A stretch of DNA of 64,000 bases from Escherichia coli. Its GTDB lineage: Bacteria; Pseudomonadota; Gammaproteobacteria; Enterobacterales; Enterobacteriaceae. The notes beneath the pieces were generated by a model. The model had not been told where the DNA came from. It searched no databases and saw only the letters and a program-made list of their open reading frames with translations. A program made the translations under genes and the position numbers. Within the stretch, counting starts at the first letter, position 1; every line of letters starts with the position of its first letter. This document shows positions 4,345 to 8,057 of the stretch, piece after piece. The stretch lies in the NCBI RefSeq assembly GCF_002854065.1, contig NZ_CP024147.1; one strand, given 5' to 3'.

Positions 4345-5118
4345 ATGAAATCTGCCACCTCTGCGCAAAGACCTTACCAGGAAGTCGGGGCGATGATCCG
4401 CGATCTGATCATAAAGACGCCGTACAATCCTGGCGAACGGCTGCCGCCGGAGCGTGAAATTGCAGAAATGCTTGATGTCACGCGGACGGTGGTACGTGAA
4501 GCGCTGATCATGCTGGAGATCAAAGGGCTGGTGGAAGTGCGCCGGGGTGCCGGTATCTATGTTCTTGATAGCTCAGGCAGCCACAACACAGACAGTTCGG
4601 ATGCCAACGTCTGTAATGATGCGGGTCCTTTTGAGCTGTTACAGGCGCGTCAGTTACTGGAAAGTAACATCGCGGAATTTGCCGCTTTGCAGGCTACCCG
4701 CGAAGATATCGTCAAAATGCGTCAGGCATTGCAACTGGAAGAGCGTGAACTGGCTTCCAGCGCGCCGGGTAGCAGCGAAAGCGGTGATATGCAGTTCCAT
4801 CTCGCCATTGCCGAAGCAACGCATAACAGCATGCTGGTGGAGTTATTCCGTCAGTCCTGGCAGTGGCGGGAAAACAATCCAATGTGGATCCAGTTGCACA
4901 GCCATCTGGATGACAGCCTGTATCGCAAAGAGTGGTTGGGCGATCACAAACAGATCCTCGCCGCGTTAATCAAAAAAGATGCCCGAGCGGCGAAGCTGGC
5001 AATGTGGCAGCATCTGGAAAACGTTAAGCAACGTCTGCTGGAATTCTCGAACGTTGACGATATTTATTTTGACGGCTATCTGTTTGATTCATGGCCGCTG
5101 GATAAAGTCGACGTCTGA
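4345..5118 (+). CDS. uxuR: GntR-family repressor of the uxu regulon
   Basis: Track ORF, 257 aa, N-terminal GntR-type HTH (ERLPPEREIAEMLDVTRTVVREAL). Confidence 0.95.
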   Translation: MKSATSAQRPYQEVGAMIRDLIIKTPYNPGERLPPEREIAEMLDVTRTVVREALIMLEIKGLVEVRRGAGIYVLDSSGSHNTDSSDANVCNDAGPFELLQARQLLESNIAEFAALQATREDIVKMRQALQLEERELASSAPGSSESGDMQFHLAIAEATHNSMLVELFRQSWQWRENNPMWIQLHSHLDDSLYRKEWLGDHKQILAALIKKDARAAKLAMWQHLENVKQRLLEFSNVDDIYFDGYLFDSWPLDKVDV

Positions 5119-5130
5119 CTTATTATAATA

Positions 5131-5162
5131 AGCGCAAGGGTAAACGTTCCTTGCGCTTTCTT
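5131..5162. terminator. Hairpin plus T-run between convergent uxuR and yjiC (likely bidirectional terminator)
   Basis: gcgcaagg-gtaaacgtt-ccttgcgc stem-loop followed by tttctt. Confidence 0.5.
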
Positions 5163-5258
5163 AAATTAAGAAGTCGCAATGAGTATTGCTTTGTAAATTG
5201 CAGGGTATTGTTTAAATATCTGTATAACCTGAATATTAGTACTCATTCTTCTCAGTTG

Positions 5259-5978
5259 CTATTTACCAATATAATTCCATTCACCATTTTTTAATTCAAA
5301 CAGTTCTGGAAGAGATGACGGTTGCAGAGTCATGCGTTTGAGTGGCGCATCTTCATCACCGGGGATAACTTTATATCCCATTTTTACATGGATCTCCGCG
5401 GTACCAGGATAGGCTTCTATACCAATGATTGGGTCATTTCCCATCTCAATATTAGCATTAAGTAATGCGGCAAGGGCGAATCCGGAAGAATTTGCTACCC
5501 CTGAGACAGTTATTATCTGATCAATATAGATATCAATTCTTGGCTGCTCATTGGTCCATCTTTTTGCCTGAGAAACTGGAAGGGTTGAAATATATCCTAT
5601 CGTGGTTCCGGCGTAACCTGGAACATTGCAACCAGGGCCTAATGTTATTTCATGAACTGTATAGTCCTCAACAGGATCGAAAGGGCTCTTCATAAATAAA
5701 TTTAGCCGTAAACCTTCTGCTAATTCTGTAGCAGCATGCGCCTTTTTACATATGCCACCATATATTTCGTCTAAAGCTGAGGTGATTTTCAAGTTTCGAT
5801 AGAGCATACGTCCTGTTGTTGTAATACCATTGAATTCTCTGCATGTTTCTGTCACATAATTAAATGGCCAGGACTCTTTACTAATATCAAGTTTTCTAAT
5901 TTCGACAACGCTTTTTCCATCGTAATTATGGTTATTGCCACGAGCAAGAGGCGGAAGATAGATATTTTCCGTATCCAT
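5259..5978 (-). CDS. yjiC: Uncharacterised protein YjiC
   Basis: Track ORF, 239 aa, ATG verified (MDTENIYLPP...). An in-frame stop lies 25 codons upstream, so no long extension is possible in this strain. Confidence 0.7.
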   Translation of the reverse strand: MDTENIYLPPLARGNNHNYDGKSVVEIRKLDISKESWPFNYVTETCREFNGITTTGRMLYRNLKITSALDEIYGGICKKAHAATELAEGLRLNLFMKSPFDPVEDYTVHEITLGPGCNVPGYAGTTIGYISTLPVSQAKRWTNEQPRIDIYIDQIITVSGVANSSGFALAALLNANIEMGNDPIIGIEAYPGTAEIHVKMGYKVIPGDEDAPLKRMTLQPSSLPELFELKNGEWNYIGK

Positions 5979-6760
5979 GCGTGCACGTTCATGTTTACGT
6001 GTTAACTCACTGTCGACTTTTGGATGATGAAGGAAGTGATTATATGTAATAATTTAACTCTGAAGGGCATTGCTTAATGGCATAGACATAATAGTTACCT
6101 TTATGAGTATTTCACTGATGCTTAGAAAAATAGATAAATTTTTCTGTGGTAAAAAGAGAAGTAAACAAATGACATGCATGTTTCTGTTGTAGTGATATCA
6201 ACTCTACACAGTGATATTAAATGGTGGGAAACACTCTAAAGTATCAAAAAACGCTCATTTAAAATTATTTGCATGCAATTTAAAAGCATATCTTATTACT
6301 AATTGGAATTTGATGTTGCTATATTGATGTCTATATTAATAATGCCTGTGAATGGTATTTTTGATGTATTTGATATGTTATCAATTTATATTATTTACAA
6401 ACTAATTGTTTTAAATAATACATAGCTGATTATGCGGAAATAAATAATTTCCCACCGGAATTAAGTAGCGGTGGTGACAAGTATTTTCATCTACGTAACT
6501 ATTCGGAATATTCAGAATATACTAGCGGTTTTTTTTTGAGTTTGATGATTTTTATCAAATCATGACTTTTTTCCTGAAAAGTCAGTAGATATTCATAGGC
6601 AAGTAAGGTTTTATACTTTGCTGACAGGATTCAGGCCTGTCTCAGACTGACATGGATGTAATGAACAAAAGGGAATGGCTATGGAAAATGAGCATCAATA
6701 CAGTGGTGCCCGGTGTTCAGGGCAAGCCGCATATGTTGCTAAACGTCAGGAGTGCGCAAA
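5979..6760. promoter_or_regulatory. 780 bp AT-rich divergent intergenic region upstream of iraD (multi-promoter leader), with several inverted repeats
   Basis: Long AT-rich non-coding stretch with no ORF of 60 aa or more; palindromes at about 6541..6584 and 6621..6645. Confidence 0.4.
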
Positions 6761-7153
6761 ATGATGCGCCAATCACTTCAGGCTGTTTTACCTGAAATTT
6801 CAGGCAATAAAACGTCACCGCTGCGTAAATCAGTATGCAGCGATCTCCTCACTCTTTTTAATTCTCCTCATTCGGCATTACCGTCATTACTTGTTTCAGG
6901 CATGCCCGAGTGGCAAGTGCATAACCCGAGCGACAAACATCTCCAGAGCTGGTATTGCCGTCAGCTGCGTTCTGCACTGTTATTTCATGAGCCACGGATT
7001 GCGGCGTTGCAGGTTAATTTGAAAGAAGCGTACTGCCACACTCTGGCGATCAGCCTTGAGATAATGCTGTATCACGACGATGAATCGCTAACGTTTGATC
7101 TGGTCTGGGATAATGGCGGTTGGCGCAGTGCGACGCTGGAGAATGTCAGCTAA
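6761..7153 (+). CDS. iraD: Anti-adaptor protein IraD (RssB inhibitor)
   Basis: Track ORF 6752 (GTG) trimmed to ATG 6761 ([17 protein letters not shown]...), 130 aa; CAGGAG Shine-Dalgarno 9 nt upstream. Confidence 0.85.
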
Positions 7154-8057
7154 GCACAATCTCCAGCTCGCGCAGTTCACGCCAGAAGCGTTCGGCAACT
7201 GGATTCATGCGGGTATTCATCCGGTATGCATAGGCCTGAATCGGGATCACCAGTTCGTCCCGATTCAGTACAACGAGCTGCCCGCTGCGAATTTCTTGTT
7301 GGATGGCGTATTCCGGTAGCCAGGCAATCCCACAGCCGTCGAGGGCAACCTGCTTTAAAAGCTCGCTCATCGAAGAGACAAAAAAGGTGCTGAAACTTAA
7401 CTCACTGTGGCGCGTCAGGGTGCGATTAATCAATCGCCCCATGTAGGAGTTGCGGCTGTAATTCAGTAACGGAAAGTGTGGCTGCGCGAGGTTAAAAAGT
7501 GCTTCTCCGTGTTCGTCACTGGCGCAAACGGGGAACAATTGAGATTCAAATAAGCGAATGTGGTCAAACGGCGCTTCCAGCAAATCTTCGTCGTGAAAGG
7601 AAAAAATACAGTCACTTTGCCCTTCACGCAGTTTATCGACCGCTTCATCGACATCAATAGCTTCAATTGCCCAGGTAAAGAGCGGCGGCATCTGGCTGAT
7701 AATGGACGGTAACAGCCCGAGGGAAAGAGAGTGTGCAGCGGCTATTTTAATTTTGCGTTGCGCGTAATCGCTGCCACCACGGAGTTCTGCAAGGTTGCTC
7801 TCTAACTGTTGCAACAGATGGCGGATCTGCGAATGGAATATTTTACCTTGTTCCGAGAGTTGCAGCGGCGTCACCTGGCGGTTAAACAATTCAACGCCAA
7901 TCGCCTGTTCCAGCGCACGGATGCGGCGGCTGAATGCCGGTTGCGAGACGTTGCGACTGACTGCTGCCTGGGAAAAATTGCGGCATTTTTCCAGGGTCAG
8001 AAAATCATAAAGCCATTTAGTTTCAATATTATGCAAAACCGCACCACAGTCATCCAT
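7146..8057 (-). CDS. hypT: LysR-family regulator HypT (YjiE)
   Basis: Track ORF, 303 aa, N-terminal LysR HTH ([29 protein letters not shown]). Confidence 0.9.

Follow-up and report, generated by a model that had tools for sequence, protein, structure and literature searches.

The palindromes clustered at positions 6541 to 6645 of a 64,000-nucleotide stretch of Escherichia coli DNA (the whole of which we call the window) lie in the known P2 promoter region of iraD, a stress gene through which DNA damage, starvation, and CsrA bear on the stability of RpoS. The promoter, transcription starts, small open reading frames (ORFs), and CsrA sites of this segment have been published, and little about it is new. 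We consider it probable that the segment represents the upstream, core, and initial transcribed part of P2 within an H-NS-bound island and that its palindromes are three unrelated things. Palindrome 1 would be a CRP/FNR-family operator (aTGAT-N4-ATCAa) at −72.5 from the P2 start. Palindrome 2 would be a lineage-specific dyad that arises where TGAC and GTCA flank a T-tract and an A-tract. Palindrome 3 may form a 6-bp hairpin in P1-derived RNA that competes with CsrA for its site BS1, and a 5-bp hairpin at the extreme 5′ end of P2 RNA. A predicted FNR site at −72.5 of P2 that persists in Escherichia offers a handle on whether oxygen status also reaches RpoS via IraD.

This region of the window is the E. 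coli uxuR-yjiC-iraD-hypT locus. The ORF list places uxuR at 4345 to 5118 and, together with the annotation, the iraD coding sequence at 6761 to 7153 on the plus strand; a truncated yjiC (5259 to 5978) and hypT (7146 to 8057) are on the minus strand, and iadA is also among the surrounding ORFs. RefSeq annotates ytiC, ytiD, idlP, and iraD here, and 851 bp around the palindromes were matched in 5,396 of 5,426 complete E. coli genomes. Because an alignment showed positions 6541 to 6645 to be 100% identical to K-12 MG1655, published K-12 maps transfer directly to the window. For this conversion, position 6761 was taken as the A of the iraD start codon, which overlaps the idlP stop codon within ATGA, so that a published position −n equals window position 6761−n. 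The segment then lies 116 to 220 bp upstream of the iraD ATG, refining an earlier estimate of about 120 to 200 bp.

The spacer between yjiC and iraD measures 782 bp here (5979 to 6760), compared to 672 bp in K-12. The first-pass annotation had described a 780-bp control region. The DNA is indeed iraD control DNA, but its apparent length of ∼780 bp is due solely to a truncated or frameshifted yjiC in strains of this type: the 5′ end of yjiC is missing, leaving 239 amino acids rather than the 276 of K-12 (side region 5259 to 6090), and near-identical strains have yjiC annotated as a frameshifted pseudogene. The spacer has a GC content of 33% and belongs to an AT-rich island at ∼5100 to 6700 (27 to 40% GC versus 50 to 55% in the flanks), which fits the reported H-NS coverage.

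Two promoters have been mapped upstream of iraD, with P1 starting at −417 (window position 6344) and P2 at −137 (A6624) (Sass et al.). The P2 start, on the plus strand, is 3 nucleotides ahead of the GGA of BS1 in P2 transcripts. Mutagenic primers define the P2 −10 hexamer as TATACT (6612 to 6617, plus strand), 7 nucleotides upstream of the mapped start, and replacing exactly this hexamer inactivated P2 (Sass et al.). The P1 −10 hexamer is TATATT (6332 to 6337, plus strand), as given by mutagenic primers (Sass et al.) and in agreement with our consensus scan. P2 is a σ70/σS promoter, and no −35 hexamer was recognizable 16 to 18 bp upstream of its −10 element; the consensus scan returned P1-like sites and nothing for P2, and the best −35-like hexamers found by eye would require spacers of 14 or 20 bp. 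The palindromes had been assigned to the iraD leader, and for P1 transcripts, which run from 6344 through the whole segment, that description is correct. Positions 6541 to 6623, however, belong to the P2 promoter and count as leader only in RNA started at P1.

Nor does the control region lack coding capacity, as had been proposed. The leader holds three translated ORFs, ORF23, ORF47, and ORF27 (Park 2017, PMC5574718), which are ytiC, ytiD, and idlP, respectively. On the plus strand, ytiD/ORF47 occupies 6422 to 6565 by annotation and alignment, its translation having been shown in the same study, and the idlP/ORF27 leader peptide occupies 6681 to 6764 and is translationally coupled to iraD (Park 2017, PMC5574718). 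The ytiD start codon (6422 to 6424) is ATA in the window, in strain 1435, and in ATCC 25922 and is ATG in K-12 and O157. RefSeq annotates ytiD even in strains with the ATA start, and the small protein may be absent from that lineage.

RNase T1 footprinting located four CsrA sites, BS1 to BS4, in the iraD leader (Park 2017, PMC5574718), all on the plus strand here. The BS1 GGA falls at 6627 to 6629, only 3 nucleotides from the P2 5′ end; CsrA protection of BS1 is weak, and the site matters only in P1 transcripts (Park 2017, PMC5574718). Conversion of the footprint coordinates through the ATG at 6761 places BS2 at 6649 to 6658, BS3 at 6671 to 6677 (the idlP Shine-Dalgarno sequence), and BS4 at 6683 to 6684, so that these three sites adjoin the segment on its downstream side. 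Along the P1 transcript, induction by AZT declines from 260-fold at ytiC to 33-fold at ytiD, 18-fold at idlP, and 14-fold at iraD (PMC11228462), a gradient that may reflect either a P2 baseline or attenuation inside the leader. E. albertii is without the GGA of BS1 (6627 to 6629) and that of BS4 (6683 to 6685; ATGAGA instead of ATGGAA), and its ATTCGGAAT block has lost 9 bp in frame. In strain GmF052, a 29-bp tandem duplication over the idlP Shine-Dalgarno sequence and start codon doubles the equivalents of BS3 and BS4.

The iraD P1/P2 promoters and the leader with CsrA-idlP coupling described in the literature (Merrikh 2009; Park 2017, PMC5574718; Sass 2021/2022) thus have the same sequence and the same coordinates here. 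The comparison with published promoter maps that had been suggested for the palindromes explains most of the segment, which takes in ORF47 codons, the P2 −10 hexamer and start site, and BS1. In the portions of the published iraD promoter and leader papers available to us, palindromic dyads as such are not discussed.

IraD is confined to Escherichia. More distant orthologues were considered for phylogenetic footprinting and set aside, because the matches at 50% identity are genes that sit in a different, operon-like context. Within Escherichia we distinguished four sequence types upstream of iraD: the K-12 type, to which the window belongs, that of E. albertii, that of strain E69, and a yjiC-less type. 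In the last, idlP-iraD comes ∼370 bp after uxuR and its terminator, without yjiC, P1, ytiC, or ytiD. This arrangement was found in ∼490 complete E. coli genomes, in E. whittamii, in Escherichia sp. E1V33, and in others, and its iraD is only ∼76% identical. Across the types the P2 −10 hexamer reads TATACT, TATATT, or TATCTT, and conservation also extends to the GGA of each of BS2 and BS3 and to the junction of idlP with iraD. Because a TAA codon interrupts ytiD in the yjiC-less type, ytiD coding cannot explain the conserved upstream DNA.

Among genomes that carry the allele of the window, 4,896 of 4,901 were at least 99% identical over the 105 bp. Positions 6473 to 6713 had no variable site in eight diverse E. 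coli strains, compared to 39 variable sites in positions 5950 to 6250. Since the segment is nearly invariant within E. coli of this allele, some of it must be under constraint, and that constraint is already accounted for by the promoter and the CsrA sites. Conservation in close relatives, which the first-pass annotation had regarded as decisive for the palindromes, differed among the three: the FNR core of palindrome 1 was retained, whereas dyads 2 and 3 are lost in E. albertii, E69, and the yjiC-less type.

Each of the three inverted repeats was confirmed at its described position. In the register first reported, palindrome 1 pairs TTTGAT (6541 to 6546) with ATCAAA (6554 to 6559) across a 7-nucleotide spacer within the last ytiD codons, and it overlaps a second dyad, ATGATTT/AAATCAT (6545 to 6563). 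Palindrome 2 consists of TGACTTTT (6563 to 6570) and AAAAGTCA (6577 to 6584), which form eight perfect pairs around a 6-nucleotide spacer. It is the best dyad in the yjiC-iraD spacer and spans −61 to −40 of P2 (center, −50.5), and its left arm opens with the ytiD stop codon TGA (6563 to 6565). Palindrome 3 (6621 to 6645, plus strand) straddles the P2 +1 and has arms GACAGG (6623 to 6628) and CCTGTC (6636 to 6641) separated by 7 nucleotides. It is a perfect 6-bp stem, and the 2-bp CT...AG extension that reaches 6621 and 6645 costs a 2-nucleotide bulge (TC) rather than the 1-nucleotide bulge originally written.

We compared the number of inverted repeats (perfect arms of at least 6 bp, loops of 3 to 10) in positions 5979 to 6760 with that in 2,000 dinucleotide shuffles of the same DNA. 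There were 7 loci, versus 2.3 ± 1.5 in the shuffles (P = 0.012), and the probability of finding at least four inverted repeats in some 105-bp stretch was 0.008. The clustering is therefore real and moderately above expectation for DNA of 33% GC. These values, together with the near invariance of the segment, count against the idea that the palindromes other than the FNR-like site are chance products of low-complexity AT-rich DNA with no function of their own, although the constraint behind that invariance is the one that the promoter and CsrA sites explain. Chance nonetheless remains a possible, if rather unlikely, source of the two dyads, as the spacer is AT rich, the arms of palindrome 2 are mostly runs of T and A, and palindromes 2 and 3 are lineage specific. 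In addition, at least three inverted repeats occurred in some 105-bp stretch in 5.5% of shuffles (P = 0.055), and an 8-bp arm somewhere in the spacer had a P value of 0.17.

The proposal that the palindromes are candidate regulator sites fared best for palindrome 1, once its register was changed. The meaningful register is not the one with the 7-nucleotide spacer but ATGAT-TTTT-ATCAA, with a TGAT-N4-ATCA core, at 6545 to 6558 (no strand assigned). This dyad, ATGATTTTTATCAA, has one mismatch to the consensus TTGAT-N4-ATCAA. It is among 187 genome-wide predicted FNR sites, centered at 4554800 and assigned to yjiC/iraD (Myers 2013, Table S6, PMC3688515), and the yjiC/iraD site is also entered in Table S7 of that study. 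Its PatSer score of 12.49 exceeds the study threshold (Myers 2013, PMC3688515). A second listed site lies 1,099 bp away both in the coordinates of Myers and in the window (7644 to 7657), which confirms the mapping of coordinates between the two. This second predicted FNR site, TTCATCGACATCAA, is inside hypT (qseD) and is listed as silent with Fis enrichment (Myers 2013, Table S6, PMC3688515).

To score candidate sites independently, we rebuilt an FNR position weight matrix (PWM) from the 63 ChIP-positive sites in the Myers table, whose own scores range from 11.8 to 21.3. ATGATTTTTATCAA scored 14.9 bits, the highest value at any of the ∼64,000 positions along the 64-kb window; against the 63 bound sites it ranks 38th. 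The originally described N7 register scored −26 and was ruled out as an FNR site, as was a TTGAT-N5-ATCAA sequence at 6370 to 6384, which scored −7. Each of the four Escherichia sequence types retains the core TGAy-N4-rTCAA, and despite one to four substitutions the orthologous 14-mers score 12.3 in E. albertii, 13.3 in E69, and 11.0 in the yjiC-less type, the last falling just under the weakest bound site (11.8). We also considered whether the change from TGAT/ATCA to TGAC/GTCA represented covariation in an RNA stem, and rejected this reading, as E69 and E. albertii have intermediates with C/A mismatches. Because the variants keep to the score range of bound FNR sites, or in the yjiC-less type fall marginally under it, a protein site explains the variants of palindrome 1 better than an RNA stem does.

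The center of ATGATTTTTATCAA, at 6551.5, is −72.5 from the P2 start at 6624. FNR activates or represses promoters from centers such as −41.5, −61.5, and −71.5; the last is a canonical class I position, and the site is 1 bp off it. In the wild type there is no FNR ChIP-seq peak at ATGATTTTTATCAA, and an H-NS ChIP-chip peak covers it; FNR binds this silent site only in a Δhns ΔstpA strain (Myers 2013, PMC3688515). A σ70 ChIP-seq peak 80 bp downstream of the FNR site is ∼4-fold higher anaerobically (Myers 2013, PMC3688515), and its distance from the site assigns it to P2. The mRNA of yjiD (iraD) rises 3.7-fold anaerobically, with an aerobic/anaerobic ratio of 0.27 (Myers 2013, PMC3688515), the direction of which we checked against dmsA, narG, cyoA, and sdhC. 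The gene appears only in Tables S2, S6, S7, and S12 of Myers 2013 (PMC3688515) and is absent from the tables comparing the wild type with Δfnr; the study cites earlier evidence of FNR regulation. FNR plausibly acts on P2 from this site, at which it is not detected in wild-type cells: it would occupy palindrome 1 once H-NS and StpA are removed, and could then contribute a plausible share of the anaerobic rise in P2 activity. With respect to the silent FNR sites of Myers 2013 (PMC3688515), ATGATTTTTATCAA is literally one of them, with no difference in sequence. What our analysis adds is its placement at −72.5 from P2, its overlap with ytiD codons, and its FNR-likeness in three other Escherichia lineages.

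RNA structure had been offered as the other explanation for the palindromes, and it finds a partial foothold at palindrome 3, which overlaps CsrA site BS1 at the P2 start. The predicted fold has both G residues of BS1 base-paired within the 5′ arm of palindrome 3, and the GGA is not exposed in the hairpin loop. Since the Gs are paired in the stem rather than presented in the loop, the hairpin should antagonize CsrA. Like CsrA sites that carry GGA in a hairpin loop, BS1 is an authenticated, albeit weak, site whose GGA stands beside a stem-loop; unlike them, it has its two Gs paired, and the motif is not presented. Its weak protection by CsrA would fit such pairing, and judging from the fold, the GGA-to-GCA change published for BS1 would also cost palindrome 3 one of its stem pairs.

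Extending this idea to the whole segment, three consecutive stem-loops in the P1 leader might influence iraD expression by way of ytiD termination, the stability of the mRNA, or the access of CsrA to BS1. We regard this as unlikely, even though positions 6530 to 6660 as P1 RNA do fold into exactly three hairpins (z = −2.44; 3 of 200 shuffles folded as well), with individual energies of −5.4, −8.4, and −8.9 kcal/mol for palindromes 1, 2, and 3, and even though the third stem includes the GGA of a site relevant only in P1 transcripts. This better-than-shuffled fold is something that a purely DNA-level reading does not need. Hairpins 2 and 3, however, are lost in other lineages, where energies are near those of shuffles: the palindrome 2 hairpin, at −8.4 kcal/mol in the lineage of the window, drops to −3.8 in E. 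albertii and matches shuffles in the other types, while the palindrome 3 stem occurs only in the K-12 type, with a different stem in E69 and nothing better than shuffles in the yjiC-less type. Given seven sequences, RNAalifold preferred a long-range pairing of TGAyUUUU in the palindrome 1 region with AAAAGUCA over the three local hairpins, with a covariation term of −0.89 and changes on both sides in 2 of 20 pairs. Fold z-scores for individual lineages ranged from −2.1 to +0.5, and neither these folds nor RNAalifold revealed a conserved RNA structure with compensatory changes across the Escherichia relatives. A translated ORF also covers palindrome 1 and, with its stop codon, the opening bases of palindrome 2, and abolishing the translation of ORF47 leaves iraD expression unchanged (Park 2017, PMC5574718). 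A scan with Rfam covariance models returned no family and only a chance snoRNA match elsewhere in the spacer (E = 0.14). A terminator or attenuator was ruled out, as positions 5979 to 6800 contain no terminator-like site and no run of T follows any of the three stems.

A hairpin at the 5′ end of the P2 transcript fares no better. 5′-terminal stem-loops stabilize bacterial mRNAs, such as that of ompA. The P2 transcript resembles these in that it can start with a 5-bp stem at +1, ACAGG/CCUGU (−4.6 kcal/mol). In contrast to ompA-type stabilizers, this stem is no stronger than those of shuffles (shuffle fraction, 0.22), is skipped by the minimum-energy fold of the full P2 leader (z = −0.13), and is not conserved. 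By eye, each lineage seemed to carry a stem at this place, but these stems are nonsignificant against shuffles and their register shifts, and we rejected a conserved 5′ stabilizer of P2 mRNA.

Returning to the promoter reading, in which the three palindromes are separate things, the most conserved feature near palindrome 2 is an 18-bp block, AAAAGTCAGTrGATATTC, that alignments show to be almost invariant across all Escherichia sequence types. In the window it reads AAAAGTCAGTAGATATTC (6577 to 6594, plus strand), corresponds to −47 to −30 of P2, and includes the right, promoter-proximal arm of palindrome 2. The left, distal arm is not conserved, with its TGAC replaced by TACC, TATC, or TGC. The selected element of palindrome 2 would then be its promoter-proximal half only, as part of this block, which we suspect serves RNA polymerase (alpha or sigma) or an activator at this −35-less promoter. 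The block matched none of the motifs tested: an UP element and sites for IHF, Fis, NarL, and Cra were each tried for palindrome 2 and the block, and none fitted well enough.

It is doubtful that palindrome 2 as a whole is the operator of a dimeric P2 regulator, which could underlie the effects of DNA damage, ppGpp/SspA, or HusR on iraD. Its eight perfect pairs, its position upstream of a promoter without a −35 hexamer, as expected of an activator, and the invariance of its proximal arm all speak for such an operator. So does the 8-mer TGACTTTT, the complement of the invariant AAAAGTCA, which lies 6 nucleotides upstream of it in the K-12 type and recurs perfectly in the yjiC-less type and in E69, there 23 nucleotides upstream of AAAAGTCA and within the FNR-like site. 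Against it, variation of the distal arm leaves only the K-12 type with the geometry of a dimer site, an 8-bp arm is not rare by chance, as noted above, and no site has been published at 6563 to 6584. As for HusR (YnfL), its in vitro binding somewhere in the yjiC-iraD spacer, given by a gSELEX peak (HusR paper), would favor such an operator; the published box, CAGAATATACTAGCGG, is at 6513 to 6528 (no strand assigned), 13 bp upstream of the segment. The pattern CnGnnnAnnTnnnCnG carries little information, occurring 25 times in the window versus 16 expected, and the published iraD box misses one position of the strict pattern. We found no match to it in 6541 to 6645 and rejected a HusR box in the segment; furthermore, the list of HusR-activated genes in the HusR paper does not include iraD.

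The invariant −47 to −30 block and the TGACTTTT complement at a variable distance from it are what is left beyond the published maps, and there is only a slim chance that together they form the operator of a further DNA-binding factor, which could be, for example, a partner from which SspA or the LexA-independent DNA damage signal gains its promoter specificity at iraD. A DnaA box within the segment was also rejected, as the published box at −81 corresponds to 6680 to 6688, downstream of the segment, and DnaA ChIP-seq does not include iraD.

Tandem dyads, tATTCgGAATATTCaGAATAt, at 6500 to 6519 are kept in all Escherichia types, including those in which ytiD does not form an ORF, and their core, GAATATTC, recalls what we take to be an RcsAB box. 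These dyads overlap the published HusR box at 6513 to 6528. In strain BKQ37E (NZ_CP170328.1), an IS1A element is inserted in the yjiC-iraD spacer, and the match to the window falls into two pieces over 1,628 bp. Finally, IraD is encoded at 98% identity on a 605-bp contig labeled Bacillus coahuilensis m4-4, and one partial IraD carries the label Acinetobacter baumannii; both entries would seem to be E. coli contamination of public assemblies.
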